64,000 bases of DNA. It comes from Heterodontus francisci (lineage: Eukaryota). The stretch's first letter is position 1. Each line of letters begins with the position of its first letter. The stretch covers positions 16,526,945 through 16,590,944 of the forward strand of contig NC_090416.1 in assembly GCF_036365525.1 (NCBI RefSeq). Reading direction: 5' to 3'. Under the pieces are notes generated by a model. The model was not told where the DNA came from and ran no database searches. It saw only the letters and a list, made by a program, of their open reading frames with translations. This document shows, piece by piece, positions 2,677 through 47,475 of the stretch. The translations under genes and the position numbers were made by a program.

Positions 2677-5600
2677 CGTAGTTCCAGACGGGGAAGTATA
2701 AAAAATTAACTTTGGGGATTCTCGCACCAGGCTCGGAGGGCGGAGTTCACCTCGGGGATTTTCGGAGCAGAGTCGGAGATGCTCGGACCGACTCGGAGGG
2801 CGGAGTTCACCTCGGGGATACTCGGAGCAGCCTCGGAGAGCGGAGTTCACCTCGGGGACTCTCGGAGCAGACTCGGAAGGCGGAGTTAATCTCGGGGATT
2901 CTCGGACAGACTCGGAGGGCGGAGTTAACCTCGGGGATTCTCGGACAGACTCGGAGGGCGGAGTTAACCTCGGGTATTCTCGGACAGACTCGGAAGGCAG
3001 AGTTAATGTCGATGGGCCGAAGGGCCTGTTTCAGTGCTGTATCTCTAAATAAAAAATAAAAATAAAAATAAATAAAATAATATTTATAGTAGAAATCTAG
3101 CACTAGGGACCATATAGTTAATTATAACAATTTAGTAAGAATTTAATAAGTATTTATTTTATATTAATTAACTAATTAGTGATAGAAATGTCAGTTAAAG
3201 GGGTGAAGTGCTTCACCTGTGAGATGTGGGAAGTCCGTGACACTTCCAGCATTCCGGGCGACTCCGCCTGCAGGAAGTTTACCCAGTTGCAGCTCCTCAC
3301 AGACCGCATGGATCGGTTGGAGCGGCAACTGGATGCACTTAGGAGCATGCAGGTGGCAGAGAGCGTCATAGACAGGAGTTTTGGAGAAGTGGTTACACCC
3401 AAGGTGCAGGCAGATAGATGGGTGACCGCTAGAAGGGGCAGGCAGTCAGTGCAGGAATCCCCTGTGGCTATCCCCCTCTGTAACAAGTATACCGTTTTGG
3501 ATACTGTTGGGGGGGGATGGCCTATCAGGGGAAAACAGCAGCAGCAGCCAGAGCAGTGGCACCACGGCTGGCACCGTTGTTCAGCAGGGAGGGACAAAGC
3601 GCAGAAGAGCAATAGTTATCGGGGACTCTGTAGTCAGGGGCACAGATAGGCGCTTCTGTGGACGTGAAAGAGACTCCAGGATGGTATGTTGCCTCCCTGG
3701 TGCCAGGGTCAAGGATGTCTCTGAATGGACAGGGGGCATTCTGAAGGGCGAGGGTGAACAGCCAGAGGTTGTGGTACACATCGGTACCAATGACATAGGC
3801 AGGAAGAGTGATGAGGTCCTGCAGGGGGAGTTTAGGGAGTTAGGTAGTAAGTTAAAAAAACAGGACCTGTAGGGTTGTCATCTCTGGATTAGTCCCTGTG
3901 CCACGTGCCAGTGAGGCTAGAAATAGGAAGCTAGTGCAGCTAAACACGTAGCTGAGCAGCTGGTGTAGAAGGGAGGGTTTCAGATATCTGGACCATTGGG
4001 CTCTCTTCAGGGACAGATGGGACCTGTACAAGAAGGAAGGGTTGCATCTAAACTGGAGCGGCATTAATATCCTTGCTGCAAAGTTTGCTAGCGTCACTCG
4101 GGAGGGTTTAAACTAGTGTGGCAGGGGGTGGGAACCAGAGCAGTGGGACAGTTAGAAAAATAAATGAGGAGGACATAGTAAATAAGGCCAGTCGGACTAA
4201 GAGGAAGAGCAGGCAGGGAGATGTTGCTGAGCACAGCGGGACTGGTGCTCTGAAGTGCATTTCTTTCAATACGAGAAGTATAACAGGTAAGGCAGATTAA
4301 CTTAGAGCTTGGATTAGTACTTGGAAATATGATGTTGTTGCTATTACAGAGACTTGGTTGAGGGAAGGGCAGGATTGGCAGCTAAATGTTCCAGGCTTTA
4401 GAAGCTTCAGGCAGGATAGAGGGGGATGTAAAAGGGGTGGGGGAGTTGCATTACTGGTTAAGGAGAATATCACAGCTGTACTGCGGGAGGACACCTCAGA
4501 GAGGTCATGCAGCGAGGCAATAGGGGTGGAGCTCAGGAATAGGAAGGGTGCAGGCACGATGTTGGGGGTTTACTACAAGCCTCCCAACAGCCAGCGGGAG
4601 GTAGAGGACAAGATATGTAGACAGATTTTGGAAAGATGTAAAGGTAACAGGGTTGTGGTGGTGGGTGATTTTAACTTCCCCTATATTGACTGGGACTCAC
4701 TTAGTGCTAGGGGCTTGGATGGGGCATAATTTGTGAGGAGCATCCAGGAGGGCTTCTTGAAACAGTATGTAGATAGTCCAACTAGGGATAGGGCCATTCT
4801 GGACCTGGTATTGGGGAATGAGCCCGGCCAGGTGGTCGAAGTTTCAGTGGGTGAACATTTCGGGAGCAGCGACCATAATTCCATAAGTTTTAAGGTACTT
4901 GTGGATAAGGATAAGAGTAGTCCTCGGGTGAAGGTGCGAAATTGGGGGAAGGCTAATTATAACAATATTAGGCAGGAATTGAAGAATTTAGATTGGAGGG
5001 GCGGCTGTTTGAGGGTAAATCAACATCTGACATGTGGGAGTCTTTCAAACGTCAGCTGATTAGAATCCAGGACCAGCATGTTCCTGTGAGGAAGAAAGAC
5101 AAGTTTGGCATGTTTCGGGAAATTTGTATAACACTGGATGTTGTGAGCCTCGTCAAAAAGAAAAAGGAAGCATTTGTCAGGGTTGGAAGGCTCGGAACAG
5201 ACTTGAGGAATATAAAGACAGTGGGAAGGAACTTAAGCAAGGAGTTAGGAGGGCTAAAAGGGGTCATAAAAGGTCATTGGCAAACAGGATGAAGGAGAAT
5301 CCCAAGGCTTTTTATACATATACAAAGAGCAAGAGGGTAACCAGGGAAAGGGTTGGCCCACTCAAGGATAGAGATGGGAATCTATGTGTGGAGCCAGAGG
5401 AAATGGGCGAGGTGCTAAATGAGTACTTTGCATCAGTATTCACCAAAGAGAAGGACTTGGTGGATGATGAGCCTAGGGAAGGGAGTGCAGATAGTCTCAG
5501 TCATCTCATTATTAAAAAGGAGGAGGTGTTGGGTGTTTTGCAAAGCATTAAGGTAGATAAGTCCCCAGGGCCTGATGGGATCTACCCTAGAATACTGAGG

Positions 5601-7138
5601 GAGGCAAGGGAAGAAATTGATGGTTTCTTGTCAGAAATCTTTGCATCATTTTTGGCTACAGGTGAGGTCCCAGAGGACTGGAGAAAAGCTAATGTTGTTC
5701 CTTTGTTTAAGAAGGGTGGCAAGGATAATCCAGGAAATTATAGGCCGGTGAGCCTTCCGTCAGTGGTAGGGAAACTATTAAAGAGGATTATTCGGGACAG
5801 GATTTACTCCCATTTGGAAACAAACGAACTTATTAGTGAGAGACAGCATGGCTTTGTGAAGTGGAGGTTGTGTCTTACTAATTTGATTGAGTTTTTTGAG
5901 GAAGTGACGAAGATGATTGATGAAGGAAGGGCAGTGGATGTTGTCTATATGGACTTTATTAAAGCCTTTGACAAGGTCCCTCATGGCAAACTGGTACAAA
6001 AGGTAATGTCACATGGGATCAGATGTGAGCTGGCAAGATGGATACAGAACTGGCTCGGTCATAGAACACAGAGGGTATCAGTGGATGGGTGTTTTTCTGA
6101 ATGGAGGGATGTGACTAGTGGTGTTCCGCAGGGATCAGTGCTGGGACCTTTGCTGTTTGTAGTATATATAAATGATTTGGAGGAAAATGTAGCTGGTCTG
6201 ATTAGTAAGTTTGCGGACGACACAAAGGTTGGTGGAGTTGCGGATAATGATGAGGATTGTCAGAGGATACAGCAGGATATAGATCGGTTGGAGACTTGGG
6301 CGGAGAAATGGCAGATGGAGTTTAATCTGGACAAATGTGAGGTAATGCATTTTGAAAGGACTAATGCAGGTGGGAGGTATACAGTAAATGGCAGAACCCT
6401 CAGGAGTATTGACAGACAGCGAAATCTGGGCGTACAGGTCCACAGGTCACTGAAAGTGGCAACGCAGGTGGATAAGGTAGTCAAGAAGGCATACGGCATG
6501 CTTGCCTTCATCGGTCGGGGCACAGAGTATAAAAATTGGCAAGTCATGTTGCAGCTGCACAGAACCTTAGTTCGGCCACACTTAGAATATTGCGTGCAAT
6601 TCTGGTCGCCACACTACCAGAAGGACGTGGAGGCTTTGGAGAGGGTACAAAGGAGGTTTACGGATGCTGCCTGGTCTGGAGGGCATTAACTATGAGGAGA
6701 GGTTGGAAAAAGTCGGATTGTTTTCACTGGGACGACGGAGGTGGAGGGGCGACATGATAGAGGTTTACAAAGTTATGAGCGGGATGGACAGAGTGGATAG
6801 TCAGAAGCTTTTTCCCAGAGTGGAAGAGTCAGATACTATGGGACATAGGTATAAGGTGCGAGGGGCAAAGTTTAGAGGGGATGTACGAGGCAAGTTTTAT
6901 ACACAGAGGGTGGTGAGTGCCTGGAACTTGCTGCCAGGGGAGGTGGTGGAAGCAGATACGATAGCGATGTTTAAGTGACATCTTGACAAATACATGAATA
7001 GGAAGGAAATAGAGGGATATGGGCCCCGGAAGTGCAGAAGGTGTTAGATTAGGCAGGCATCAAGATCGGTGCAGGCTTGGAGGGCCGAATGGCCTGTTCC
7101 TGTGTGGTACTGTTCTTTGTTCTTGTTCTTTGTTCTCT
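2677..7138 (+). mobile_element. Full-length CR1-clade LINE, disabled (unit 1); ORF1 ~3188-4116, ORF2 ~4118-7050
   Basis: ORF1: CxxC, leucine zipper, SGNH esterase motifs (GDS, GTND, GLHL); ORF2: APE endonuclease (ITETW, GDFN, SDH) and RT (GVPQGSVLGP, FADD); tail GGCCGAATGGCCTG..(TTCTTTG)n; stops and frameshifts. Confidence 0.95.
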
Positions 7139-8914: not shown

Positions 8915-9326
8915 ACAAGAGGAGGCCATTCAGCCCTTCGAGACTGCTGTACCATTCCATTAGATCATAGCTGGTCTGTACCTTAACCCCATATACCCTG
9001 CCTTAGCTCCATAGTCCTTGCTGCCCTTACCCAATAAAAATCTATCAACCACAATCTTTATAACTCCAATTTTTAATGAAGTGCATTTCTATAGCGTCTT
9101 TCACAACCTCAGGATGTTCCCAAAGTGCTTCGCAGCCAATGAAATACCTTGAAAAGCAATGTTGGGAAATGAAGACTGGGATGTAGAGCAGGAGGAGTTC
9201 AGTTCAGTTCTCCTGAGGGGCCCAGTCCAGATAATGGGTTGTTTTGTTATAAATGTGTGACGTGTCCAAGAATGGAACCGTTTAACGGTGTTTCTCGGAT
9301 TTCCGTCCTGTTTCTGTGTGTTTCAG

Positions 9327-9436
9327 AGCAGGGGAACTGGGCCCAGATGCTGCTGCTCTCTGCTGCTTATCAGACAGTGAACAGGGATGTTTCGGTTCCT
9401 CCCCGAGGCTCCTCTCCCACCCCCTGCAGCGAGTGA
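9327..9436 (+). pseudogene. C-like mini-exon, internally deleted (also 24942-25051, 41502-41611, 58772-58881)
   Basis: Strong acceptor TCCTGTTTCTGTGTGTTTCAG|, phase-1 frame QGNWAQMLLLSAAYQTVNRDVSVPPRGSSPTPCSE*; start resembles SEDRKPSVLLLPPS and end resembles ISSTACSD*. Confidence 0.45.
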
Positions 9437-9659
9437 CCACACCACCTGCACCACATCACAAACAAGACAAAAACAGCATCGATTTGGGTATCAGGATCTA
9501 AAATAAGGCTTTCAGAACACCGCCCAGGTCCCCTGTGGTTGATGACGAGGGCCTGATCTGAGCTGCATTCAGTGCCATTCTCAGACCCAGTCTGGAACCT
9601 GGCTGTTCGGCCATGTGAATCATCAACATTGTGGATTTAACTGGACTGATAAACGTTTG

Positions 9660-9825
9660 ATGGCCTTTAAGATACTCCTTAAAACCTACCTCTTTGACCG
9701 AGCTTTTGGTCACCTGCTCTAATATCTCCGAATGTGGCTCAGCATTAAACTTTGTTTGCTGACACTCCTTGCGACGTTTTATTACATTAAAGGCGCCATA
9801 TAAATGCAGATTGGTTGTTGTTTGC
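9660..9825 (+). mobile_element. L2-like LINE 3' tail fragment (repeated in each unit)
   Basis: FKILLKTYLF-like end and AAAGGCGCCATATAAATGCA tail. Confidence 0.55.
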
Positions 9826-11349
9826 AGATGACAATTCGTTGAAGACCTTAATAACTAACCGACTGCAGGCCATGAAGTACATCAACTAAAGCCACAATTA
9901 AAACTCAAGGCTTCTGATGTAAGTACAGTACTGAAGGAATACCGCACTGCCGGAGGGGCTATCTGTCACTTGGAATCTGCCCTCTGTTAAAGATACTGCA
10001 ACCCCTATTTAGAAAAAGAGTTGGGGAGTTCTCCCCCATCCCCGTGTCTTGGCTGATATTTATCCTTCAATCAATATCACAAAAAAAAATCACCTGGGTC
10101 ATTATCTCATTGTTATGTGTGTGGGATCATGCTGTGCGCAAATTGGCTGCTGTGTTTCCTACATTACAACAGTTGACTAGACTTCAAAAAAAATACTTGG
10201 TTGGCTGTAAAGCGCTGTGCGACATTCTGAAGCTGTGAAAGGAGGCTCACTGTCACCTTCTCAGGGGGACAACCAGTGATGGACAATAAATGGCTGGTCT
10301 TACCAGAGATGCCCACATCTCGAGAATGAAGAAGTGCAGGTTCTGTCTCTCTGGACGCTGTGATGTCCCCTTGTAAAACATATTGAAACTAAATAGTTCT
10401 AAAAACATCTGCATAAATACAGCATCCTCAGACTCGAGATGAGGATTAAACCTGCATTTAATACCTCTTTAAGTGCGTGGCCCCTTTAAGGTGTGCTGAG
10501 GGACTCTGCTTTTCCAGCACTCTCTGTCCATTTACTCTTTGAGGTGATGCAACCGATACTCTCTCCACAGCCGGGGGCTCAGTTAACAGCCCTTCCCTCT
10601 TATGGCCCCTAGTTCTGCTCTCACCCGCAAGTGGAAACGTCCAGCCTTATCGAGGCCTTTCATAACCTGAAAGGCCTCCATCAGGTCCTACCCTCCCCCC
10701 TTCTCGGTCTTCTCTTTTCAACCTATCCTGGTAGCCTATCTCAGTACTGGTACCATCCCAGCACATCTTTTCTTGCACCTTCTCCAGTGTCATTTTATAA
10801 CATGGAGACGGGAACAGTGCACAGTAATTCCAAGTGTGGTCTAACTGAGGTTCCCTACAAGTTTGACTTAATGTATCTGCTTCTCAATTCTATCCCTCGA
10901 GAAATTAACCCCGGTGTTTGGATTGCTTTTTATATGGCCTTATTCAGCAGCATTGCTGCAGTTACTCTATAACCCTCGATCCACAACCCTATTTAGACTC
11001 TTTCTTCCCCACCTCCCCCTCCCTCCAGGACTAGGTGACCTCATTCATCCTCCCAAAAAGTAGCACCTCACACTTATCCATACTGACCTTCATTTGCCAA
11101 TTACACACCCATTCTGCATGTCACTTCATGTCCTGTCATTTGTGATGGACCTAATATTAACTGCAGCCTCCCCCAATTTGGAGTCATCAGCAAGCTCTCA
11201 AATTGTACCTGGGGCTAGTCTGTCCCGTGCCATCCCATCTCTCGGACCGGGATAGTGAGCAGTTCTCCCTGGGAGGGACGGTATTTTATTCCAAACAGAG
11301 GCTTTTCCTGTAAATCACATACAATGATGGTCTAGTATGGGAGAAACTA

Positions 11350-12034: not shown

Positions 12035-12363
12035 AAAACAGCCACACACACAGAGATACACTTTTCAATTCTAACAAATGGTACTACTGAGAGAAAGGAG
12101 AGAGGGAGCAGAACCCATCCAGCTCCAAATGGGAATGTACTCCCGGGATAGGTGGTCCTGATATTCACTGTCACCCACCTGCGCCCCCCAGTTAAAATTG
12201 GATCCAAAATTGGATCGTTAAACTGCGATTGAAGTGACTGTTTCAACATCGCTGGCCACATTTGCTACAGTGATTACATTGTAAAACAACAACAACAACA
12301 TTCCACATATTGAATAATATTTCATCAGCAATAAATCAAACTCTAAACCCCAGTTGCCCCCTC

Positions 12364-12692
12364 TCAGTCGGAACAAGCGGTGGAGCTGATGGTTTTGAGG
12401 AGAGGTGAGCTCAGAGAGCCGTGGTCCACACTGCAGGTATAGCTGGAGCCCTTATTCCAGGCAGTGGCGGGGACTCTCAGGTAACTGCTCAGGCTGTAGG
12501 TTTGATCACTGTCCGTGGACACGGTGCCTGTGGTCACCCCGCTGTCTGTCTCTTTATCATCCACTCTCCAGAGAACCCGCACGAAACCCGGCTTAAAGCG
12601 GCTCACCAGGCAGGACAGAGTAGCCCATCCGGAGTCTATTTCTTCCGAGGAAGGAGGGAGCAGGAGAACTGATGGTTTCCGATCCTCACTAC
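12364..12692 (-). CDS. IgL cluster 1 C exon
   Basis: Acceptor CACAG|GT; SEDRKPSVLLLPPS...ATLSCLV...W...YSLSSYL...YTCSVDH...STACSD*; C1-set domain with the C-terminal Cys. Confidence 0.97.
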
Positions 12693-13708
12693 CTGTGTGT
12701 GAGAGACAGGGTGGAAGAAAGGAATCTCACTGTTAGTATCAATCATTTTTTCTAAAAGGCACATCCAGAATTAGTAACACAGACTATAATTTAAAACAAA
12801 CATTTAACTTGACTTCAGACTTAGGTAGAGACAGTAAATAATATAATAGCCTGAGTGTTTCCAGCACTCGATTTCAGATTTCCAGCATCTGCAGGATTTT
12901 GCTTTGATTGGATTAAAATTAAATATTTAGTCCAATCTTAACTCCCTGTCAATTGAGAGCTGGACTTGTACATGGATTCGAGACATTCAATATAAATTAA
13001 TTAACTGAATATTAAATACAACAGACAATATCGAATTGTTTAAAATTCAGGGGCAGATTAAAATCAAAAGTTTATAAATTGAGGAAGTTTCACATTTCGG
13101 ATAGGCTGTACTGGAGGTCTTATGGAGGTGCTCGGAGTATGTATTGGGAGTAACTCAACCTCCCAGATCCACACTCAGAGTTCGGTGATCACCTCACCAG
13201 GAAAAATACTTTATTTAAAAAAAAAGAGTTTTAAAAGTAATAAAGTTCGGGGCGGTTTCCATTTAGAAAGTAGGTTAGACACTTCACATGAAGGAATGAC
13301 AGCCGGAAGGAGGGGTTTGGGAAGGTAGACGGGGGGTCGGGGTTAGTGGGACCGGGGTGCGTTAGGAACAGACAAGATGGGGGGGGGGGGGGGGCGCAGA
13401 ATGAGGCCATTCGGTCCATCGAGTCCCTGCCGCAGCCTAACCCACTTCCCAACTTTGGGAGTCTTTTTTTGAGGTGGGGGAGGGGGTGCTAGTGTCAAAC
13501 TCGACCCCCTTTGAGTGTGAGTAAAATTCCTGTTTGTAAATCTTCCAGCAACACCCGGGGCAGGCTCGCTATTTATACAACAGTGCAGCGAATAGACGGA
13601 GAAGTCCACACCTGCACACTGCAGACCTGGCCGAACAGACTCGAGGGGCTGAATGGCCTTTCTCCCCTGTTCATTCTGCATTTTTTTTTTGCCAATGGAG
13701 TTTTTCCT

Positions 13709-13857
13709 CGGTTCTGAGGAAAGGTCAGAGACCCGAAACTGTTCACCGTTTCTCCCTCTCTCTCCGCAGGGGCTGCCCAGACCTGCTGAGTATTTCCAGC
13801 ATCTTCTGTTTTTTTATTTCAGATTTCCAGCATCCGCAATTGTTTTGCTGCTATTTT
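13709..13857 (+). mobile_element. Penelope-like terminal fragment with hammerhead core in J-C intron (also 29311-29460, 45919-46068, 63182-63330)
   Basis: CTGAGGA A AGGTC AGA GACCC GAAAC TGTTC then CAGACCTGCTGAG..TTCCAGCAT. Confidence 0.7.
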
Positions 13858-14031
13858 AGTGTTTATTTTTCTACCCTCCAGAATCCAAATTCCCAGCACT
13901 GAATCAGTGGACAGAAAAATAAAAATCAGACCTAATTTTTTTTCACCGTTATCAGGGCAGATCCGATTCTGCAACAATAAATGAATAAATAATTGAAACA
14001 ATATGAATGATAGGATGAGGGAATTACTTAC

Positions 14032-14068
14032 TCCGTAAACTCAGGGCGGTCCCAGGTCCGAAGGTAAA
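14032..14068 (-). CDS. IgL cluster 1 J segment (FTFGPGTALSLR)
   Basis: FGxGT motif, 37 nt, phase-1 donor A|GTAAGT. Confidence 0.96.
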
Positions 14069-14107
14069 CACAGTGCAGTGTTTTAATGGGACGGGTCACT
14101 TAAAACC
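14069..14107 (+). other. J recombination signal sequence, 23-bp spacer
   Basis: CACAGTG + 23 nt + CTTAAAACC reading away from J. Confidence 0.88.
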
Positions 14108-14450: not shown

Positions 14451-14778
14451 TATGTAGCTGCTGAGTATTCCGCGGCAGCACAGTAATAGACGGCGGAGTC
14501 TCCCGGTTCCAAGCTGCCGATGGTCAGAATGTGACTGTTACTGGAGGTGTCTCTGGAAGGTTTAAAACGGTCCGTGAAGCCGGTGCCTCGATTGATGCTC
14601 CCATCTTTATAGTGCACTAACACCCACACCGGAGCCTCCCCGGGTCGCTGTCGGTACCAGCTCATGTAGTAACTGCCCACATTGCCGTTCTGCATCGCAC
14701 ACTTTAACTCGGAGGTCTCACCGGCGGAGACTGGGTCTGAAATTGGGGTCTGATTGAGGACAGGAACCGCCAGGACAC
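14451..14778 (-). CDS. IgL cluster 1 V exon, shark type I / sigma-cart-like
   Basis: Acceptor TTGAAG|GT; VPVLNQTP...LKC...WYRQRPGEAP...DSAVYYCAAAEYSAAT; both Cys and the Trp present; followed directly by RSS. Confidence 0.97.
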
Positions 14779-14940
14779 CTTCAACACAAAACACAAGAGA
14801 GAGAAAAACACATTCAGTTTATTGGAGCAAAAAAGCAAACTGATAAATAAACAGGCCGGGCTACCAAATCCCTTTGCTTCCTAATCTAATGGTTTACAAA
14901 TGAATAATTGAGTAACGCTCTGTTAACATAAGTCTCTCAC

Positions 14941-14989
14941 CTGTTAAATGGAGTAGCAGGGTCCCCAGGAGATACATTACTGCAGCCAT
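14941..14989 (-). CDS. IgL cluster 1 leader exon (MAAVMYLLGTLLLHLT-G)
   Basis: ATG at 14989, hydrophobic signal peptide, 49 nt phase-1 exon ending ACAG|GTGAG. Confidence 0.93.
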
Positions 14990-15039
14990 TCCCTCCGGGG
15001 GGGGGGAAAAAACCCGTGAAGAATTAGAGAGCAGGGTTT

Positions 15040-15262
15040 TACTGTAACTCCAGAAAGTGGATCCAGTTACAGTGCCGGACAAGGTGAGACCAGTATCTAT
15101 TATATGAACCTGTATGCAAATACAGGGAGGGTTGAGAGGAGCAGGGGCGGCGGGGGGGCGGGGGGGGGGGGGGGGTGGACCAGACCAGATTTTTTTTATT
15201 GAGCCTCTATTGGTCCCCAATTAAACATTTCCATGTATTTATTTCCACCGAGTTGAGGGTTA
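15040..15262 (-). promoter_or_regulatory. IgL cluster 1 V promoter: octamer ATTTGCAT (15114-15121) plus TATA-like CATATAATAG
   Basis: Minus strand CCCTCCCTGTATTTGCATACAGGTTCATATAATAG about 125 nt upstream of the leader ATG; light-chain-type octamer orientation. Confidence 0.85.
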
Positions 15263-16024
15263 ATTCACAATAATTTCTGATTTTAACCCCCCCCTTCTCA
15301 TGTCAAGAGTGTGAGATTTAAAAGAACAACTGTAGAAATTGCACATTTTATCCCAGATGGGCAAAGACAAAAGCCCTTCAGAATCCAGTGCCTTGAATTC
15401 ATCCAGAACAAGTTTAACCCAGCGATCGTTAAGGATTTGTTTTTTTTTTATATTTGGGTCTGCAATGTGTACTTAAACACATATCTTTATATCCAACACG
15501 CTGGTGTTTGCAACAAAGCAGTTCATTGGAAGGATTGGAATGGAAGAGATTGACTGGACTGCTTCTCTCAGCTGCTCTTTTTTCCTATCCGCCACTGTAC
15601 AAGTGCACTGCTTGTCCTGGCGTTTGAGCCGAGTGTAGGGTCAAAACACTCGTTTCTCACTCAGGCCGACGTTCAGAAACAGCCAGAATCAACTCCAATA
15701 TCCGTTTTAATTGGTAATGCAACGAGGAGTGAGATTCTGACCGGGCAAGCTGACTGCTCGGCTAGTTTCTGTGTTGTGTCCGGATCCTGTGTTAAGTCCA
15801 GTTTCAATGAAATGTGTTTTCCTGCTGCAACAGTTCCTGCCCTGACTTTTTTTTGTTGCAACTAAACCACATGTATCGGAACCTCAGTCCCAGGAATACA
15901 TTTGTTTTAACATTCCATTTCAGATGTTTTATGTCAATCACTCGATGCCAAGGGAAAACTTGCAACAAGTAGCTGGTGAGAGGAGTTAGTTTCTTTAAAA
16001 TGAATATTTTCTATCTTTATTTTA

Positions 16025-16464
16025 AATTCACTTCATGGGATATGGGCATCACTTGGCCCTGCCCGCATTTATTGCCCATCCCTCATTGCCGTTGAGAAGG
16101 TGGTGGTGGAGCCGCCTTCTTGAACTGCTGCAGTGCAGTGGTTTTTTACAACAGAACGTCCATTTCTGAGGGCAGTTAAGAGTCAACCACATTGCCGTTG
16201 GTCTGGAGTCACATGTAGGCCAGACGAAGTGAGGACGGCAGATTTCCTTCCCTAAAAGGACATTTGTGAACCAGATGGTTTTTTGTTAATGAACATTCAA
16301 TGGTAGTTTTATGGTCACCATTACTGAGACTAGGTTTCAATTCCAATTTTTAAAAATTAATTAGTTGAATTTAAATTCCATGGTGGGATTTGAACACGTG
16401 TCTCCAGAGCATTATCCTGGGCCTCTGGATTAGTAATATCTAGTGACATTACTACTACGCCACC
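16025..16464 (-). mobile_element. Older tRNA-derived SINE (also ~31645-32420, 48250-49024)
   Basis: Minus strand begins GGTGGCGTAGTAGTAATGTCACT..GTTCAAATCCCACC (A/B-box-like). Confidence 0.7.
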
Positions 16465-16489
16465 TTGTGATGGATCAATATTAATTCTA

Positions 16490-16846
16490 GAAATGTGATA
16501 GGATTTGAGCCAGTGAAAGGGGGAAGGTGGGAAGAAGAACAGCAGGGAAGGTCTGTGACAGGGGTGGAGGGCAGGAGAGATTAAATGACAAAAAGGGTTT
16601 CAAGGTGCAAAGCCAAAGGGAGTGGTAATGAAAGATGTGTCTGGACGAGGTGTGAATGACAGGTACTGAACACAAGGTAAAGGAAATAAGAGGTAAACAA
16701 GAGAGATAAAATAACAAATCAGCAAACAAAAAGGGAAACAAAAATGAGGGCAGGGGGGTTACAAACTAAAATTGTAGAATTCAGTGTTGAGTCCGGAAGG
16801 CTGTAGACTGCCCAGTCGAAAGATGAGGTGCTGTTCCTGGAGTTAG
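16490..16846 (-). mobile_element. Penelope-like element 3' fragment (also 1-312, 32446-32812, 49050-49407)
   Basis: Minus strand encodes LQEQHLIFRLG(T/S)LQPSG(L/H)N.EF, typical of the GIY-YIG endonuclease C-terminus of Penelope-like elements. Confidence 0.75.
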
Positions 16847-17104
16847 TCTCCTAATACTGACATGTTCAGTCAAGTCAGTGTCGACTAGCTGCCTCCTAGA
16901 CAGAGAATTTGACTCCTCCCCAATTAAAAATCCGTTTCTGATTGGTCTCCACAGCAGAAACAGACCCACCTCCCTCCCCTCCCACCAGGCAGATTCTCTG
17001 GGTCATTTTCAACTAAACCTAACCTGCATTACTATAGAGACCTCAGGATGTCCTAAAGACAGACAAATAAACACCTGTTTTGAAGTCTGGTCATTGTAAC
17101 ATCA

Positions 17105-17267
17105 TAACCCAATGCACAATGGAAATAAATATTTGGAAATGATCAATCAGGGACAATTATATTTTTAATAAAGTGTTTTCCCCTGCTCCCCTTGACCCCC
17201 TCCCTGTATTTGCATATTGACTAATACATAGATACTTGTATTCTCCGGGTTCCCGGAGTTACAGTAA
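17105..17267 (+). promoter_or_regulatory. Inverted paralogue of IgL V promoter (octamer 17208-17215), divergent from cluster 1 promoter
   Basis: Same blocks as 570-732. Confidence 0.88.
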
Positions 17268-17326
17268 TCTTGTTGAAGTGAAAGCACAATTGCTAAATGT
17301 GTGAGAAGCTGAACTCAGCTTTGCTC

Positions 17327-17454
17327 GTGTAGTTGAATAGAGGGTGCACATATGTAGTTAAATGGAGTCATCCACGTATGTAGTTAAATGGAGTCATCCA
17401 CGTATGTAGTTAAATGGAGTCATCCACGTATGTAGTTAAATGGAGAGTGCCAGT
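17327..17454 (+). repeat. 26-bp VNTR (ATGTAGTTAAATGGAGTCATCCACGT), 5 copies; 3-4 copies in other units
   Basis: Direct tandem between the inverted promoter and the leader remnant. Confidence 0.85.
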
Positions 17455-18416
17455 GTGCAGTAAAATGGGGTTGTGCACATGTCTAATGGAAAGCAGTTCA
17501 GCACCTCTAGGTTCATAGAATCTCTCACTTTGCACAGCAGATGTCACATGGCTGCAGCTTTGCCCAGGGAGCCTACCCGGTTCACACAGGATAGGCCAGG
17601 TGTTAAAGCAAGAGCATTTGGTGCTGCCTATTGAAGCTTGCACAGCGGTTAAAGGAAAATACAATTAAAGCTCACAAGATGGGAATCTTGTAAAGTGTCA
17701 GCCATGGCTTCGTGGGTTCAAGTCCCAATCCAGAGACTTGAGCACAAAAAACAGTCTCACATTCCCCGTGTAGTACTGAGGGAGCGCTGCACTGTCGGAG
17801 GTTCAGTACTAAGAGAGTGCGGCACTGTCGGAGGGTCAGTACTGAGGGAGTGCTGCACTGTCGGAGGATCAGTACTGAGGGAGTGCTGCACTGTCAGAGG
17901 GTCAATACTGAGAGAGTGCTGCACTGTCAGAGGGTCAGTACTGAGGGAGTGCTGCACTGTCTGAGGTGCTATCTTCACAAGTCCCCCTCAGGTGGACATT
18001 ATCGATCCCATGACTCTATTTGAAGGAGAGCAGGTGCCCTGGACAATATATATTCCAACATTAACACCTAAAGCTGTAACTGGTCATTATCACATTGCTA
18101 TTTGTGGGAGCTTGCTGTGTAAATGACTGTCAGATTTCCTGCATTTCAACAGTGACTACATTTCAAAACACACTTCAAAAGTACGTCATTAGATGTGAAC
18201 CACTTTGGGGCAGCCTAGTGATCAGACCACTCTGTCTCTCCATCTGTCTATCTGTCTATGTATCTGACCACTCATCNNNNNNNNNNNNNNNNNNNNNNNN
18301 NNNNNNNNNNNNNNNNNNNNNNNNNNNNNNNNNNNNNNNNNNNNNNNNNNNNNNNNNNNNNNNNNNNNNNNNNNNNNNNNNNNNNNNNNNNNNNNNNNNN
18401 NNNNNNNNNNNNNNNN

Positions 18417-21400
18417 TAGTTCCAGACCGGTAAGTTTAAAAAACTTACTTCGGGGATTCTCGCACCAGGCTCGGAGGGCGGAGTTAACCTCGGGAATTTT
18501 CGGAGCAAACTCGGAGATTCTCGGTCAGACTCGGAGGCCGGAATTAATCTCGGGGATTCTCGGACAGAGTCGGAGGGCGTGGTTAACCTCGGTGATTCTC
18601 GGACAGACTCGGAGGGCGGAGTTTGTGTCGATGGGCCGAAGGGCCTGTTTCTGTGCTGTATCTCTAAATAAAAATAAAAATAAAAAAATAAAATAATATT
18701 TATAGTCGAAATCCAGCACTAGGGGCCATATAGTTAATTATAACAGTTTAGTAAGTATTTAATAAGTATTTATTTTATATTAATTAACTAATTAGTGATA
18801 GAAATGTCAGTTAAAGGGGTGAAGTGCTTCACCTGTGAGATGTGGGAAGTCCGTGACACTTCCAGTATTCCGGGCGACTCCGCCTGCAGGAAGTTTACCC
18901 AGTTGCAGCTCCTCACAGACCACATGGATCGGTTGGTGCGGCAACTGGATGCACTTAGGAGCATGCAGGTGGCAGAGAGCGTCATAGACAGGAGTTTTAG
19001 AGAAGTGGTTACACCCAATGTGCAGGCAGATAGATGGGAGACCGCTAGAAGGGGCAGGCAGTCAGTGCAGGAATCCCCTGTGGCTATCCCCCCTCGCTAC
19101 ACCATTTTGGATACGGTTGGGGGGGATGGCCTAGCAGGGGAAAACAACAGCAGCAGCCAGAGCAGTGGCACCACAGCTATCACTGTTGTTCAGCAGGGAG
19201 GGACAAAGCGCAAAGAACAATAGTTATCGGGGACTCTATAGTCAGGGGCACAGATAGGCGCGAATGTGGACGTGAAAGAGACTCCAGGATGGTATGTTGC
19301 CTCCCTGGTGCCAGGGACAAGGATGTCTCTGAATGGACAGGGGGCATTCTGAAGGGCGAGGATGCACAGCCAGAGGTTGTGGTACACATCGGTACCAATG
19401 ACAGAGGCAGGAAGAGTGATGAGGTCCTGCAGGGGGAGTTTAGGGAGTTAGGTAGAAAGTTAAAAAAACAGGACCTCTAGGGTTGTCATCTCTGGATTAG
19501 TCCCTGTGCCACGTGCCAGTGAGGCTAGAAATAGGAAGATACTGCAGCTAAACACGTGGCTGAGCAGCTGGTGTAGAAGGGAGGGTTTCAGATATCTGGA
19601 CCATTGGGCTCTCTTCAGGGACAGATGGGACCTGTACAAGAAGGACGGGTTGCATCTAAACTGGAGGGGCGCTAATATCCTGGCTGCAAAGTTTGCTAGC
19701 GTCACTCGGGAGGGTTTAAACTAGTGTGGCAGGGGGGTGGGAACCAGAGCAGTGGGACAGCTAGAAAAATAAATGAGGAGGACATAGTAAATAAGGCCAG
19801 TAAGACTAAGAGGAAGAGCAGGCAGGAAGATGTTGCTGAGCACAGCGGGACTGGTGGTCTGAAGTGCATTTCTTTCAATGCGAGAAGTATAACAGGTAAG
19901 GTAGATGAACTTAGAGCTTGGATTAGTACTTGGAAATATGATGTTGTTGCTATTACAGAGACTTGGTTGAGGGAAGGGCAGGATTGGCAGCTAAATGTTC
20001 CAGGCTTTAGAAGCTTCAGGCGGGATAGAGGAGGATGTAAAAGGGATGGGGGAGTTGCATTACTGGTTAAGGAGAATATCACAGCTGTACTGCGGGAGGA
20101 CACCTCAGAGAGGTCATGCAGCGAGGCAATATGGGTGGAGCTCAGGAATAGGAAGGGTGCAGTCACGATGTTGGGGGTTTACTACAGGCCTCCCAACAGC
20201 CAGCGGGAGGTAGAGGAGCAGATATGTAGACAGATTTTGGAAAGATGTAAAGGTAACAGGGTTGTGGTGGTGGGTGATTTTAACTTCCCCTATATTGACT
20301 GGGACTCACTTAGTGCTAGGGGCTTGGATGGGGCATAATTTGTGAGGAGCATCCAGGAGGGCTTCTTGAAGCTGTATGCAGACAGTCCAACTAGGGATAG
20401 GGCCATTCTGGACCTGGTATTGGGGAATGAGCCCGGCCAGGTGGTCGAAGTTTCAGTGGGGGAACATTTCGGGAGCAGTGACCATAATTCCATATGTTTT
20501 AAGGTACTTGTGGATAAGGATAAGAGTAGTCCTCGGGTGAAGGTGCTAAATTGGGGGAAGGCTAATTCTAACAATATTAGGCAGGAATTGAAGAATTTAG
20601 ATTGGGGGCGGCTGTTTGAGGGTAAATCAACATCTGACATGTGGGAGTCTTTCAAACGTCAGCTGATTAGAATCCAGGACCAGCATGTTCCTGTGAGGAA
20701 GAAAGACAAGTTTGGCATGTTTCGGGAAATTTGGATAACACTGGATATTGTGAGCCTAGTCAAAAAGAAAAAGGAAGCATTTGTGAGGGCTGGAAGGCTA
20801 GGAACAGACGAAGCACTTGAGGAACATAAAGACAGTGGGAAGGAACTTAAGCAAGGAGATAGGAGGGCTAAAAGGGGTCATAAAAGGTCATTGGCAAACA
20901 GGATTAAGGAGAATCCCAAGGCTTTGTATACATATATAAAGAGCAAGAGGGTAACCAGGGAAAGGGTTGGCCCACTCAAGGATAGAGATGGGAATCTATG
21001 TGTGGAGCCAGAGGAAGTGGGCGAGGTGCTAAATGAGTACTTTGCATCAGTATTCACCAAAGAGAAGGACTTGGTGGATGATGAGCCTAGGGAAGGGAGT
21101 GCAGATAGTCTCAGTCATCTCATTGTTAAAAAGGAGGAGGTGTTGGGTGTTTTGCAAAGCATTAAGGTAGATAAGTCCCCAGGGCCTGATGGGATCTACC
21201 CTAGAATACTGAGGGAGGCAAGGGAAGAAATTGATGGTTTCTTGTCAGAAATCTTTGCATCATTTTTGGCTACAGGTGAGGCCCCAGAGGACTGGAGAAT
21301 AGCCAATGCTGTTCCTTTGTTTAAGAAGGGTGGCAAGGATAATCCAGGAAATTATAGGCCGGTGAGCCTTCCGTCAGTGGTAGGGAAACTATTAAAGAGG

Positions 21401-22757
21401 ATTATTCGGGACAGGATTTACTCCCATTTGGAAACAAACGAACTTATTAGTGAGAGACAGCATGGCCTTGTGAAGTGGAGGTTGTGTCTTACTAATTTGA
21501 ATGAGTTTTTTGAGGAAGTGACGAAGATGATTGATGAAGGAAGAGCAGTGGATGTTATCTATATGGACTTTATTAAAGCCTTTGAGAAGGTCCCGCATGG
21601 CAGACTGGTACAAAAGGTAATCTCACATGGGATCAGATGTGAGCTGGCAAGATGGATACAGAACTGGCTCGGTCATAGAAGACAGAGGGTATCAGTGGAT
21701 GGGTGTTTTTCTGAATGGAGGGATGTGACTAGTGGTGTTCCGCAGGGATCAGTGCTGGGACCTTTGCTGTTTGTAGTATATATAAATGATTTGGAGGAAA
21801 ATGTCGCTGGTCTGATTAGTAAGTTGGCGGACGACACAAAGGTTGGTGGAGTTGCGGATAATGATGAGGATTGTCAGAGGATACAGCTGGATATAGATCG
21901 GTTGGAGACTTGGGCGGAGAAATGGCAGATGGAGTTTAATCTGGACAAATGTGAGGTAATGCATTTTGAAAGGACTAATGCAGGTGGGAGGTATACAGTA
22001 AATGGCAGAACCCTTAGGAGTATTGACAGACAGAGAAATCTGGGCGTTGCGGTCCACAGGTCACTGAAAGTGGCAACGCAGGTGGATAAGGTAGTCAGGA
22101 AGGCATACGGCATGCTTGCCATCATTGGTCGGGGCATAGAGTATAAAAATTGGCAAGTCATGTTGCAGCTGTACAGAACCTTAGTTAGGCCACACTTAGA
22201 ATACTGCGTGCAATTCTGGTCGCCACACTACCAGAAGGACGTGGAGGCTTTGGAGAGGGTACAAAGGAGGTTTATCAGGATGTTGCCTGGTCTGGAGGGC
22301 ATTAACTATGAGGAGAGGTTGGAAAAAGTCGGATTGTTTTCACTGGGACGACGGAGGTGGAGGGGCGACATGATAGAGGTTTACAAAGTTATGAGCGGCA
22401 TGGACAGAGTGGATAGTCAGAAGCTTTTTCCCAGGGTGGAAGAGTCAGTTACTAGGGGACATAGGTTTAAGGTGCGAGGGGCAAAGTTTAGAGGGGATGT
22501 GCGAGGCAAGTTTTTGACACAGAGGGTGGTGAGTGCCTGGAACTTGCTGCCAGGGGAGGTGGTGGAAGCAGATACGATAGCGACGTTTAAGAGACATCTT
22601 GACAAATACTTGAATAGGATGGGAATAGAGGGATACGGTCCCCAGAAGTGCAGAAGTTGTTAGTTTAGACAGGCATCAAGATCGGTGCAGGCTTGGAGGG
22701 TCGAATGGTCTGTTCCTGTGTGGTACTGTTCTTTGTTCTTGTTCTTTGTTCTCTCTG
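18417..22757 (+). mobile_element. Full-length CR1-clade LINE (unit 2); ORF2 has one stop (20336-20338) and LADD
   Basis: Consecutive 204-aa and 773-aa ORFs in one frame; ORF1 frameshifted. Confidence 0.95.
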
Positions 22758-30053: not shown

Positions 30054-30381
30054 TATGTAGCTGCTGAGTATTCCGCGGCAGCACAGTAATAGACGGCGGA
30101 GTCTCCCGGTTCCAAGCTGCCGATGGTCAGAATGTGACTGTTACTGGAGGTGTCTCTGGAAGGTTTAAAACGGTCCGTGAAGCCGGTGCCTCGATAGATG
30201 CTACCACTTGTAGAGTGGGCTAACACCCACACCGGAGCCTCCCCGGGTCTCTGTCGATACCAGCTCATGTAGTAACTGCCCACGTTGCCGTTCTGCATCG
30301 CACACTTTAACTCGGAGGTCTCACCGGCGGAGACTGGGTCTGAAATTGGGGTCTGATTGAGGACAGGAACCGCCAGGACAC
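30054..30381 (-). CDS. IgL cluster 2 V exon
   Basis: Open V domain; CDR2 region AHSTSGSIY; ends CAAAEYSAAT. Confidence 0.97.
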
Positions 30382-30641: not shown

Positions 30642-30860
30642 ACTGTAACTCCAGAAAGTGGATCCAGTTACAGTGCCGGACAAGGTGAGACCAGTATCTA
30701 TTATATGAACCTGTATGCAAATACAGGGAGGGTTGAGAGGAGCAGGGGCGGCGGGGGGGGGGGGGGGGGGGTGGGGGGGGGGGGTGGGTGGGAGTGGACC
30801 AGACCAGATTTTTTTTATTGAGCCTCTATTGGTCCCCAATTAAACATTTCCATGTATTTA
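30642..30860 (-). promoter_or_regulatory. IgL cluster 2 V promoter (octamer 30715-30722)
   Basis: Same sequence as the cluster 1 promoter. Confidence 0.85.
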
Positions 30861-31713: not shown

Positions 31714-32065
31714 GGCGGCACAGTGGCGCAGTGGTTAGCACTCCAGCCTCACAGCTCCAGGGACCCGGGTTCGATTCCGGGTACTGCCTGTGAGGAGTTT
31801 GCAAGTTCTCCCTGTGTCTGCGTGGATTTTCTCCGGGTGCTCCGGTTTCCTCCCACAAGCCAAAAGACTTGCAGGTTGATAGGTAAATTGGCCATTATAA
31901 ATTGTCACTAATATAGGTAGGTGGTAGGGTAATATAGGGACAGGTGGGGATGTTTGGTGGGAATATGGGATTAGTGTAGGATTAGTATAAATGGGTGGTT
32001 GAGGTTCGGCACAGACTCGGTGGGCCGAAGGGACTGTTTCATTGCTGTATCTCTAATCTAATCGA
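31714..32065 (+). mobile_element. tRNA-derived V-SINE (HE1-like), full length
   Basis: A box TGGCGCAGTGG, B box GGTTCGATTCC, V-domain-like core GGTGCTCCGGTTTCCTCCCAC, LINE-like tail ..GGGCCGAAGGG..CTCTAATCTAA; empty site at 16096/16097. Confidence 0.88.
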
Positions 32066-33069
32066 AAGGTGGTGGTGGAGCCGCCTTCTTGAACTGCGAC
32101 AGTGCAGTGGTTTTTGTACAACAGAACTGAGGGCAGTTAAGTGTCAACCACATTGCCGTGTGTCTGGAGTCACTAGTCGGCCAGACCAGGTGAGGAAGGC
32201 AGATTTCCTTCCCTAAAAGGACATTTGTCAACCAGATGGTTTTTTGTTAATGAACATTCAATTTATGGTCACCATTACTGAGACTAGGTTTCAATTCCAA
32301 TTTTTCTTTTAATTAATTAGTTGAATTTAAATTCCATGGTGGGATTTGAACTCGTGTCTCCAGAGCATTATCCTGGGCCTCTGGATTAGTAATATCTAGT
32401 GACATTACTACTACTCCACCTTGTGATGGATCAATATTAATTCTAGAAATGTGATAGGATTTGAGCCAGTGAAAGGGGGAAGGTGGGAAGAAGAACAGCA
32501 GGGAAGGTCTGTGACACGGGTGGAGGGCAGGAGAGATTAAATGACAGAAAGGGTGTCAAGGTGCAAAGCCAAAGGGAGTGGTAATGAAAGATGTGTCTGG
32601 AGGAGGTGTGAATGGCAGGATCAGAACACAAGGTAAAGGAAATAAGAGGTCAACAAGAGAGATAAACTAACAAATCAGCAAAGAAAAGGCCAACAAAAAT
32701 GAGGGCGGGGGGGGGGGGGGGGGGTTACAAACTAAAATTGTTGAATTCAGTGTTGAGTCTGGAAGGTTGTAGAGTGCCCAGTCGAAAGATGAGGTGCTGT
32801 TCCTGCAGTTAGCCTCCGATTACTGACGTGTTCAGTCAAGTCAGTGTCGACTAGCTGCCCCCTAGACAGAGAATTTGACCCCTCCACCACTAAAAATCCA
32901 TTTCTGATTGGTCTCCACAGCAGAAACAGACCCATCTCCCTCCCCTCCCACCAGCAGATTCTCTGGGTCATTTTCAACTAACCCTAACCTGCATTACTAT
33001 AGAGACCTCAGGATGTCCTAAAGACAGAAAAATAAACACATGTTTTGAAGTCTGGTCATTGTAACATCG

Positions 33070-34920: not shown

Positions 34921-37900
34921 CGGAGGGCGGAGTTCCAGACCGGGAAGTCTAAAAAACTGACTTCGGGGATTCTCGGACAGCCTCGGAGGACGGAATTAAC
35001 CTCGGGGATTCTCGGACAGACTCGGAGGGCGGAGTGAACCTCGGGGATTCTCGGACAGACTCGGAGGGCGGAGTTAACCTCGGGGATTCTCGGACAGACT
35101 CGGAGGGCGGTGTTCACCTCGGGGATTCTCGGACAGACTCGGAGGGCGGTGTTCACCTCGATGGGTCGAAGGGCCTGTTTCAGTGCTGTATCTCTAAATA
35201 AAAAATAAAAATAAATAAAATAATATTTATAGTCGAAATCTAGCACTGGGGACCATATAGTTAATTATAACAATTTAGTAAGGATTTAATAAGTATTTAT
35301 TTTATATTAATTAACTAATTAGTGATAGAAATGTCAGTTAAAGGGGTGAAGTGCTTCACCTGTGAGATGTGGGAAGTCCGTGACACTTCCAGCGTTCCGG
35401 GCGACTCCGCCTGCAGGAAGTTTACCCAGTTGCAGCTCCTCACAGACCGCATGGATCGGTTGGAGCGGCAACTGGATGCACTTAGGAGCATGCAGGTGGC
35501 AGAAAGCGTCAAAGACAGGAGTTTTAGAGAAGTGGTTACACCCAAGGTGCAGGCAGATAGATGGGTGACCGCTAGAAGGGGCAGGCAGTCAGTGCAGGAA
35601 TCCCCTGTGGCTATACCCCTCTCTAACAAGTATACAGTTTTGGATACTGTTGGGGGGGATGGCCTATCAGGGGAAAACAGCAGCAGCAGCCAGAGCAGTG
35701 GCACCACGGCTGGCACTGTTGTTCAGCAGGGAGGGACAAAGCGCAGAAGAGCAATAGTTATAGGGGACTCTGTAGTCAGGGGCACAGATAGGCGCTTCTG
35801 AGGACGTGAAAGAGACTCCAGGATGGTATGTTGCCTACCTGGTGCCAGGGTCAATGATGTCTCTGAACGGACAGGGGGCATTCTGAAGGGCGAGGGTGAA
35901 CAGCCAGAGGTTGTGGTACACATCGGTACCAATGACAAAGGCAGGAAGAGTGATGAGGTCCTGCAGGGGGAGTTTAGGGAGTTAGGTAGAAAGTTAAAAA
36001 AACAGGATTCTGGGGTTGTAATCTCTGGATTAGTCCCTGTGCCACGTGCCTGAGAGGCTAGAAATAGGAAGATAGTGCAGCTAAACACGTGGCTGAGCAG
36101 CTGGTGTAGAAGGGAGGGTTTCAGATATCTGGACCATTGGGCTCTCTTCAGGGACAGATGGGACCTGTACAAGAAGGACGCGTTGCATCTAAACTGGAGG
36201 GGCACTAATATCCTGGCTGCGAGGTTTGCTAGCGTCACTCGGGAGGGTTTAAACTAGTGTGGCAGGGGGATGGGAACCAGAACAGTGGGACAGCTAGAAA
36301 AATAAATGAGGAGGACAGAGTAAATAAGGCCAGTAAGACTAAGTGGAAGAGCAGGCAGGGAGATGTTGCTGAGCACAGCGGGACTGGTGCTCTGAAGTGC
36401 ATTTCTTTCAATGCGAGTAGTATAACAGGTAAGGCAGATGAACTTAGAGCTTGGATTAGTACTTGGAAATATGATGTTGTTGCTATTACAGAGACTTGGT
36501 TGAGGGAAGGGCAGGATTGGCAGCTAAATGTTCCAGGCTTTAGAAGCTTCAGGCGGGATAGAGGGGCATGTAAAAGGGATGGGGGAGTTGCATAACTGGT
36601 TAAGGAGATTATCACAGCTGTCCTGCGGGAGGACACCTCAGAGGGGTCATGCAGCGAGGCAATATGGGTGGAGCTCAGGAATAGGAAGGGTGCAGTCACG
36701 ATGTTGGGGGTTTACTACAGGCCTCCCAACAGCCAGCGGGAGGTAGAGGAGCAGATCAGTGGACAGATTTTGGAAAGATGTAAAGGTAACAGGGTTGTGG
36801 TGGTGGGTGATTTTAACTTCCCCTATATTGACTGGGACTCACTTAGTGCTAGGGGCTTGGATGGGGCAGAATTTGTGAGGAACATCCAGGAGGGCTTCTT
36901 GAAACAGTATGTAGATAGTCCAACTAGGGATAGGGCCATTCTGGACCTGGTATTGGAGAATCAGCCCGGCCAGGTGGTCGAAGTTTCAGTGGGGGAACAT
37001 TTCGGGAGCAGTGACCATAATTCCATATGTTTTAAGGAACTTGTGGATAAGGATAAGAGTAGTCCTCGGGTGAAGGTGCTAAATTGGGGGAAGGCTAATT
37101 ATAACAATATTAGGCAGGAACTGAAGAATTTAGATTGGGGGGGCGGCTGTTTGAGGGTAAATCAACATCTGACATGTGGGAGTCTTTCAAACGTCAGCTG
37201 ATTAGAATCCAGGACCAGCATGTTCCTGTGAGCAAGAAAGACAAGTTTGGCATGTTTCGGGAAATTTGGATAACACTGGATATTGTGAGCACAGTCAAAA
37301 AGAAAAAGGAAGCATTTGTAAGGGCTGGAAGGTTAGGAACAGACGAAGCACTTGAGGAATATAAAGACAGTGGGAAGGAACTTAAGCAAGGAGTTAGGAG
37401 GGCTAAAAGGGGTCATAAAAGGTCATTGGCAAACAGGATGAAGGAGAATCCCAAGGCTTTTTATACATATACAAAGAGCAAGAGGGTAACCAGGGAAAGG
37501 GTTGGCCCACTCAAGGATAGAGATGGGAATCTATGTGTGGAGCCAGAGGAAATGGGCGAGGTGCTAAATGAGTACTTTGCATCAGTATTCACCAAAGAGA
37601 AGGACTTGGTGGATGATGAGCCTAGGGAAGGGAGTGCAGATAGTCTCAGTCATCTCATTATTAAAAAGGAGGAGGTGTTGGGTGTTTTGCAAAGCATTAA
37701 GGTAGATAAGTCCCCAGGGCCTGATGGGATCTACCCTAGAATACTGAGAGAGGCAAGGGAAGAAATTGATGGGTTCTTGTCAGAAATCTTTGCATCATTT
37801 TTGGCTACAGGTGAGGCCCCAGAGGACTGGAGAATAGCCAATGCTGTTCCTTTGTTTAAGAAGGGTGGCAAGGATAATCCAGGAAATTATAGGCCGGCGA

Positions 37901-46657: not shown

Positions 46658-46986
46658 TATGTAGCCTGCTGAGTCATCCCAGGCAGCACAGTAATAGACG
46701 GCGGAGTCTCCCGGTTCCAAGCTGCCGATGGTCAGAGTGTGACTGTTACTGGAGGTGTCTCTGGAAGGTTTAAAACGGTCCGTGAAGCCGGTGCCTCGAT
46801 AGATTTCACCATCTGTAGAGTGGTATAACACGAACACCGGAGCCTCCCCGGGTCTCTGTCGGTACCAGCTCATGTAGTAACTGCCCATTTTGCCGTTCTG
46901 CATCGCACACTTTAACTCGGAGGTCTCACCGGTGGAGACTGGGTCTGAAATTGGGGTCTGATTGAGGACAGGAACCGCCAGGACAC
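46658..46986 (-). CDS. IgL cluster 3 V exon
   Basis: Open V domain, 329 nt; CDR1 NGKMGSYY, CDR2 region YHSTDGEIY, ends CAAWDDSAGYI. Confidence 0.97.
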
Positions 46987-47249: not shown

Positions 47250-47475
47250 TTACTGTAACTCCAGAAAGTGGATCCAGTTACAGTGCCGGACAAGGTGAGA
47301 CCAGTATCTATTATATGAACCTGTATGCAAATACAGGGAGGGTTGAGAGGAGCAGGGGCGGCGGGGGGGTGGGGGGGGGGTGGGGTGGTGGACCAGACCA
47401 GATTTTTTTTATTGAGCCTCTATTGGTCCCCAATTAAACATTTCCATGTATTTATTTCCACCGAGTTGAGGGTTA
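47250..47475 (-). promoter_or_regulatory. IgL cluster 3 V promoter (octamer 47325-47332)
   Basis: Same sequence as the cluster 1 promoter. Confidence 0.85.

Follow-up and report, generated by a model that had tools for sequence, protein, structure and literature searches.

An inverted promoter copy with no detectable gene behind it upstream of the sigma-2 light-chain genes in a Heterodontus francisci array

Upstream of each light-chain gene in the analysed stretch of Heterodontus francisci DNA (64,000 nucleotides, here called the window) we found a real, inverted copy of the V promoter with no detectable gene behind it. This copy, here named the orphan, is on balance probably an old, short and largely neutral inverted duplication that was amplified along with the array in which it lies.

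The window is a head-to-tail tandem array with units of approximately 16–16.6 kb, each carrying a V-J-C light-chain cluster on the minus strand. The remainder of each unit is made up of a broken LINE, other repeats, micro- and minisatellites and assembly gaps. The alignment of four units comprised 18,028 columns, of which 13,157 were gap-free. Pairwise differences between the units ranged from 2.4 to 3.6% (distance 0.024–0.036), so that the units are about 97% alike.

Judged by their sequence, the clusters are sigma-2 (type I) IgL V-J-C clusters of the horn shark type. When the V domain was searched against proteins, 57 of 148 candidates matched. The best 11 of the 57 were from Heterodontus francisci with 83–96% identity; the presence of at least 11 distinct Heterodontus proteins suggests that the array probably has further units besides these four. 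A skate ‘type I immunoglobulin light chain’ was 67% identical to the V domain in the same search. In the cluster next to the orphan both V and C match type I, the V segment is followed by a 12-spacer RSS and the J segment is preceded by a 23-spacer RSS. Type I is the sigma-2 isotype, which is split in the horn shark and its most expressed light chain according to the available parts of two sources (PMC5985310, PMC5192425). The elements of this cluster are:

14941..14989, minus strand: leader exon (MAAVMYLLGTLLLHLT); the leader is identical in the Heterodontus protein P0001
14423..14778, minus strand: V exon (14778–14451) with 12-spacer RSS (heptamer 14450–14444, nonamer 14431–14423)
14032..14107, minus strand: 23-spacer RSS and J segment (FTFGPGTALSLRS)
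12364..12690, minus strand: C exon, 5' end approximate

Among the V exons (14453–14770, 30056–30373 and 46676–46978) 24 of 327 sites were variable, mainly around CDR2 and at the 3' end, and the C region was nearly invariant among units (3 of 363 sites). This is the usual pattern of a diversifying V and a homogenised C. P0001 belongs to a public gene model that bears the name of a gamma heavy chain and joins three V domains from adjacent clusters to one C, an annotation artefact of this type of array.

The working promoter and the orphan stand back to back upstream of the V exon:

15039..15262, minus strand: sigma-2 IgL V promoter, the portion that has a paralogue
15114..15121, minus strand: octamer in the light-chain orientation; the leader ATG follows 125 nt downstream
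15263..17104, no strand: spacer between the two promoters
17105..17267, plus strand: inverted promoter paralogue (orphan), 79% identical to the working promoter
17198..17216, plus strand: 19-nt block shared without mismatch with the working promoter; it includes CCCT motifs and the octamer (17208–17215)

In total, seven perfect octamers were present in the window. Only three of them are functional octamers in front of V genes (15114, 30715 and 47325), against four octamers of the orphan type in the opposite orientation (673, 17208, 33173 and 49769). The octamer of the minus-strand gene at 15114–15121 and the oppositely orientated one at 17208–17215 were confirmed where the preliminary description had placed them. 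In the three complete promoter pairs the octamers are separated by 2087, 2451 and 2437 nt. The two longer gaps result from an insertion of 353 nt that carries tRNA-type A and B boxes and was found in two of the three spacers (31714–32066 and 48321–48673); this agrees with the spacing of about 2.1 kb, or about 2.45 kb with an extra SINE, that had been described.

Alignment of the orphan to the working promoter gave identity at 134 of 170 columns (79%), corresponding to a JC distance of about 0.25. Six exact blocks of 8–19 nt, 71 nt in total, are shared: the 19-nt octamer block, the two TGGAAAT motifs (17120–17131 and 17134–17141 in the orphan), CCCCTGCTCC, ATAGATACT and GGAGTTACAGTAA. The 19-nt block, the TGGAAA motifs and the further blocks listed earlier for the two promoters thus proved exact in the alignment. 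The paralogy is beyond chance, since none of 500 shuffles reached the observed score (z 13.6) and nhmmer returned E values from 1e-13 to 4e-10. All four orphans carry the octamer in the orientation of light-chain V promoters, a CCCT element adjoins it within the 19-nt block, and the leader ATG and V exon that would follow such a promoter were not detected.

The working promoter contains the TGGAAAT pair (15226–15247), a C tract, the CCCT-octamer block (15113–15131) and the TATA-like motif TATAATA 9 nt 3' of the octamer. It also contains an inverted repeat with the distal arm ending at the boundary of homology to the orphan. We take TGGAAA to be a putative NFAT-type core and the palindrome TTACAGTAA to be putatively bZIP-like. 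The spacing of 9 nt between octamer and TATA-like motif was present in both promoter copies; as judged by eye, the motif itself was found at this position in three of the four orphans and was altered in the 17208 copy. Octamer and CCCT are known light-chain promoter elements (PMC8950363, available part).

In both promoter copies (15226–15247 and 17119–17141) a distance of 14 nt separates the two TGGAAAT motifs, which resemble the product of an old, short tandem duplication. Within each pair, one TGGAAAT is also an oppositely orientated octamer with a single mismatch. Just upstream of the octamer block (15144–15180, 30745–30792 and 47355–47391) the working promoters have a G/C tract that varies in length and is missing from the orphan; all differences among the three working promoters are confined to this tract. 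An inverted repeat follows just 3' of the TATA-like motif in both copies (15040–15075 and 17236–17265). Shuffled sequences folded as well as the repeat in 10 of 200 cases for the working promoter and in 1 of 200 for the orphan. Among the orphans pairing was best in the 17208 copy, partly by way of a change private to it.

The divergence between the orphan and its source exceeds that among the units 7- to 10-fold. It is therefore older than the split of the units, and a recent duplication, which had been named as the alternative that would refute a functional reading, does not agree with a JC distance of about 0.25 against 0.024–0.036 between units. Dating with the pedigree rate of the epaulette shark (7e-10 per generation; PMC10587355, in its available part) resulted in an implausible age, and for this reason only the relative age is used here.

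In the favoured explanation, the IgL V promoter module alone (about 165–225 nt) would have been duplicated in inversion before the present units diverged, and the duplicate would then have been copied with every unit of the array. The orphan may have arisen via a local template switch or fold-back. We infer a fold-back because the 3' end of the orphan coincides with the distal arm of the inverted repeat in the working promoter, with the limit that the hairpin behind this idea is modest (10 of 200 shuffles). Repeats would later have occupied the spacer and the downstream side of the orphan, which would since have drifted largely neutrally with the intact octamer as a survivor. An intact octamer binds Oct factors, and that of the orphan probably does so whenever its cluster is open. 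As octamer and CCCT are also light-chain promoter elements, incidental Oct binding or weak outward transcription from the orphan in an open cluster is predicted as plausible.

A possible, if tentative, explanation is that the orphan has been retained as a cis-element and would provide a second Oct/CCCT/TGGAAA platform 2.1–2.5 kb upstream of each V promoter. With the same reserve, it may act as an enhancer or as an outward promoter of a non-coding RNA that would help to set the opening of the cluster for RAG. The preliminary description had pointed to the octamer being intact in all four units. This was indeed the case in four of four orphans but is uninformative: with units about 97% alike an intact octamer is expected, and in the four-unit alignment (13,157 gap-free columns) 68% of all 8-mer windows and 45% of all 19-mer windows were invariant. 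In human VH pseudogenes, 18 of 33 retain an undiverged octamer according to the available part of PMC2212390.

A comparison of substitution rates in the copy and in its flanks across units had been proposed as a check of function, and it did not favour retention. The whole orphan lay at the array median (9 of 175 sites variable, the median of 12,983 windows) and the working promoter was invariant. At the 170 homologous columns the second to fourth orphans varied at six and the three working promoters at none (Fisher P 0.03). Seven of the eight variable aligned orphan sites fell on positions shared with the working promoter, which is about the share expected without constraint as 137 of 170 positions are shared. 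The 17208 copy carries five private changes, one of them inside the TATA-like motif, which also speaks against retention. In the upstream flank 51 of 555 sites were variable, in the downstream flank 4 of 79 and in the LINE 257 of 3963. The rate of the orphan is hence below that of the upstream flank and similar to that of the downstream flank and the LINE, and not lower than that of the surrounding DNA as purifying selection would demand. Rates along the unit are very uneven (0.5–10% per 200 columns), so conversion between units may have contributed to the lack of variation in the working promoter. Ongoing conversion of the orphan was also considered, as one allele equals the working promoter at seven of the eight variable aligned sites, and was dropped because mutation from the common ancestor explains these alleles.

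Three other results point in the direction of retention. In a two-state HMM, matches between the promoters were more clustered than under uniform decay, and 2 of 60 permutations reached the observed ratio under a control that ignores alignment bias at gaps. When blocks were defined by the majority allele, none of the nine variants fell into the 71 block positions (Fisher 0.008; 6 of 176 circular shifts). However, if any matching allele counts, four of nine variants fall into 78 positions (103 of 176 shifts) and the depletion is gone; with the first unit as block reference two of nine variants were located in blocks. The third result is the run over the octamer. We simulated a neutral orphan beside a working copy that was constrained in three ways, with 2500 runs per model of which 1426–1453 were kept at matching identity. 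The octamer survived in 12–29% of these, a run of at least 19 nt occurred anywhere in 15–23% and the observed block content was reached in 7–13%. With both copies neutral (1391 kept) the corresponding values were 8%, 15% and 7%. A run of at least 19 nt over the octamer itself was found in 1.8–6.1% of the neutral-orphan simulations (P 0.02–0.06) and in 1.4% with both copies neutral. Since the intact octamer was the reason for picking this feature, the run has to be conditioned on it, and P then rises to about 0.13–0.26 (ratios from the simulations).

The clustering in the HMM, the octamer run and the majority-allele blocks are borderline, non-independent signals of constraint and amount to a weak hint. 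The preserved 9-nt spacing between octamer and TATA-like motif in both copies is consistent with a retained element as well, as is the presence of octamer and CCCT, both listed as light-chain promoter elements in the accessible text of PMC8950363, in the shared blocks. Furthermore, enhancer marks near V genes predict the rearrangement frequency at the mouse Igk locus, as far as covered by the available part of PMC6146092. The neat bracketing of the promoter module would also be expected from selection on an older, larger duplicate.

A more specific form of this explanation, which we consider unlikely, is that each sigma-2 cluster would keep an outward-facing, octamer-dependent promoter copy that competes or cooperates with the V promoter, with a transcript running towards the 3' end of the next cluster. 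If true, this would be a built-in device for stochastic activation per cluster and a handle on light-chain exclusion in sharks. More generally, a retained orphan would be a cluster-bound cis-element bearing on the choice of one among many autonomous Ig clusters for rearrangement. The support that the sequence lends to such a cluster-choice element is weak.

The region downstream of the orphan starts with about 60 nt of unique DNA, followed by a 26-nt minisatellite, about 190 nt and a repeat with a 33-nt tandem array. Two of these stretches are delimited as follows:

17328..17497, no strand: 26-nt minisatellite, core 17347–17445, with older diverged units flanking it
17498..17690, no strand: stretch with V-like and RSS-like hints, none of which passed any test

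The minisatellite sits where the leader and intron of the orphan would be, had it a gene. On either side the promoter homology breaks off abruptly within 30 nt, and anchored extensions of 30–150 nt from the ends of the shared segment were random-like in both directions (139–373 of 400 controls as high). Between the upstream flanks of the two promoters no homology was found (490 of 500 shuffles as high), and the anchored extension agreed.

The exons downstream of the orphan had been described as barely recognisable, and the orphan as far better preserved than its gene. In our analysis no test detected homology to a leader, intron, V or RSS, and as no relic of a gene is detectable there is no gene to which the preservation of the orphan could be compared. 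A V-profile built from the V parts of the 57 related proteins gave no match downstream of the orphan in six frames, and Pfam no Ig family in six of six frames. PDB sequence searches with the two longest plus-strand frames gave no match at E 10. Local DNA alignment for a V relic was equalled in score by 79, 93 and 264 of 500 shuffles, the pair-HMM by 20–52 of 100 and the search for leader and intron in the same orientation by 458 of 500, 172 of 200 and 190 of 200. With a DNA profile that ran from the promoter through leader and V to the RSS, the matches of the orphan were confined to the promoter part. The power of the pair-HMM was high for moderately diverged relics: simulated relics of at least 120 nt were found in 25 of 25 trials at distances of 0.25 and 0.4, those of 60 nt in 24 of 25 at 0.25 and those of 240 nt in 22 of 25 at 0.6 and 8 of 25 at 0.8. 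An inverted intron and leader directly after the orphan (4 of 500 shuffles; 0 and 5 of 200 shuffles; 4 and 7 of 188 windows) were rejected because composition-aware scoring put this candidate at rank 7 of 530.

These null results leave either a duplication of the promoter only or a V relic with at least 2.5 times the divergence of the promoter, and the former is simpler. A very old inverted V pseudogene, the coding part of which decayed and the promoter of which, the present orphan, was occasionally refreshed by conversion from its inverted neighbour, is quite unlikely. Some hints do follow in the order of a V gene: a donor-like site at about 17301, a pyrimidine tract with CAG at about 17530, the pattern W-x4-PG-x2-P in one frame and a heptamer-like site near 17644, which is perfect in one of the four copies (the fourth, 50252). 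The donor-like site, the W-x4-PG-x2-P pattern and the heptamer-like site are probably what had been seen by eye. Of the alignments targeted at an RSS, one reached 5 of 128, but the other three gave 27, 33 and 45 of 128. The weak power at distances of 0.8 and above (at most 8 of 25) leaves room for an extremely decayed relic, but this would require a coding part diverged at least 2.5 times more than its promoter and deletions of about 300 nt, and no recognisable V-region sequence of the kind that marks a V pseudogene was found. The mismatch of 21% and several indels between the two promoters furthermore speak against recent conversion.

It is very unlikely that the orphan drives an unrelated transcript that would be a non-coding RNA or would read through into the LINE of the same orientation about 1.4 kb downstream: a plus-strand LINE with esterase-like, endonuclease and reverse-transcriptase frames does follow in every unit, and 17450–17690 is slightly less variable (10 of 241) than the unit average (721 of 13,157), but Rfam gave no credible match over 14900–18300 (one match, E 0.25), the longest frame has no protein relative, all four LINE copies are broken by stops or frameshifts, and a minisatellite, a tandem array and an assembly gap stand between orphan and LINE. 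The 117-aa minus-strand frame of the first copy, used as the query in a protein search, matched neither of two candidates.

The published sigma-2 clusters of Heterodontus francisci (type I, NS5, sigma-cart) resemble those of the window in the split V-J-C arrangement, the 12/23 RSS and the upstream octamer. In the available part of a review promoters are apparently tied to V segments only (PMC5192425), whereas an inverted second copy of the promoter is present here. Our literature search, which included text of PMC2193156 and in which older immunology papers were thinly covered, found no description of an inverted promoter copy in shark IgL loci, and such a copy is apparently undescribed so far. 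The original Heterodontus genomic paper is reportedly that of Shamblott and Litman 1989.

The orphan is closest to promoter-retaining Ig relics. Among the human IGHV pseudogenes and truncated relics covered by the available text of PMC2212390, dead V genes have a 5' region with an intact octamer as the orphan does, and truncated relics were likewise spread by later duplication. They differ in that the human relics keep a recognisable V, whereas in the shark the promoter alone is detectable, and it is inverted, back to back with a working promoter and present in every unit.

Two other systems are related to the possible roles of the orphan. In work on the repurposing of promoters and enhancers (PMC6172195, available part) an element derived from a promoter could serve as an enhancer, the role proposed for the orphan. 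These data are mammalian epigenomes and transcriptomes with mostly enhancer-to-promoter changes, whereas the orphan is known from its sequence. For the Ly49 and KIR genes, probabilistic switches have been described in which promoter-proximal non-coding transcription determines the stochastic activation of genes in a tandem immune array (PMC4222648, available part). Such a switch is defined there as a single bidirectional element with competing sites, whereas the shark promoters are two paralogous modules 2087–2451 nt apart. For shark IgH clusters, activation that is rare and by chance has been proposed (PMC2435157, as far as available).

Whichever explanation holds, two old copies and an invariant working promoter (none of 170 homologous columns differed among the three) mark out a candidate core module of the shark light-chain promoter. 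It would comprise the TGGAAAT pair, the CCCT-octamer, the TATA-like motif and the palindromic TTACAGTAA. In the preliminary description both the inverted paralogy and the suggestion that the shared blocks can be used as candidate promoter footprints were right. If neutral, as we favour, the orphan is a minor structural note, yet of practical use in delimiting this module, as shark light-chain promoters are little studied.

Several stretches of the unit, which are non-coding or partly so, showed low variation (about 0.5–2% compared to a unit average of 4–5%). These were 15465–15864, 8956–9754, 12110–13100 and 13499–14098. Their settings are the DNA 5' of the V promoter, a region some 3 kb beyond the 3' side of C, and the intron between J and C. 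Such stretches may be better enhancer candidates than the orphan, or else recent conversion tracts.

Within the spacer the 760 nt proximal to the gene are little variable (13 of 760) and the distal part is more variable; the latter contains a repeat with a further copy near 10240–10330. The site of the 353-nt insertion corresponds to the position after 16096 in the spacer at 15263–17104, which is without the insertion. The insertion has no Rfam match, and at its 3' end it matches the terminal part of the 39-nt repeat arrays that precede the LINE. In the upstream flank of the orphan a short peptide on the minus strand (16762–16842), which had no Pfam match, presumably resembles the C terminus of a Penelope-type retroelement, and a stretch at 17020–17060 resembles what we take to be a shark SINE tail. 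The LINE is near full length at 18700–22700, with copies at 3100–7100, 35200–39250 and 52600–56550. Each copy is interrupted, and the LINE was amplified with the cluster in the same orientation as the orphan. Additionally, the minisatellite region of the fourth orphan only carries an insertion of about 100 nt (49968–50067) that is 76% like a repeat of the J-C intron (13711–13813).
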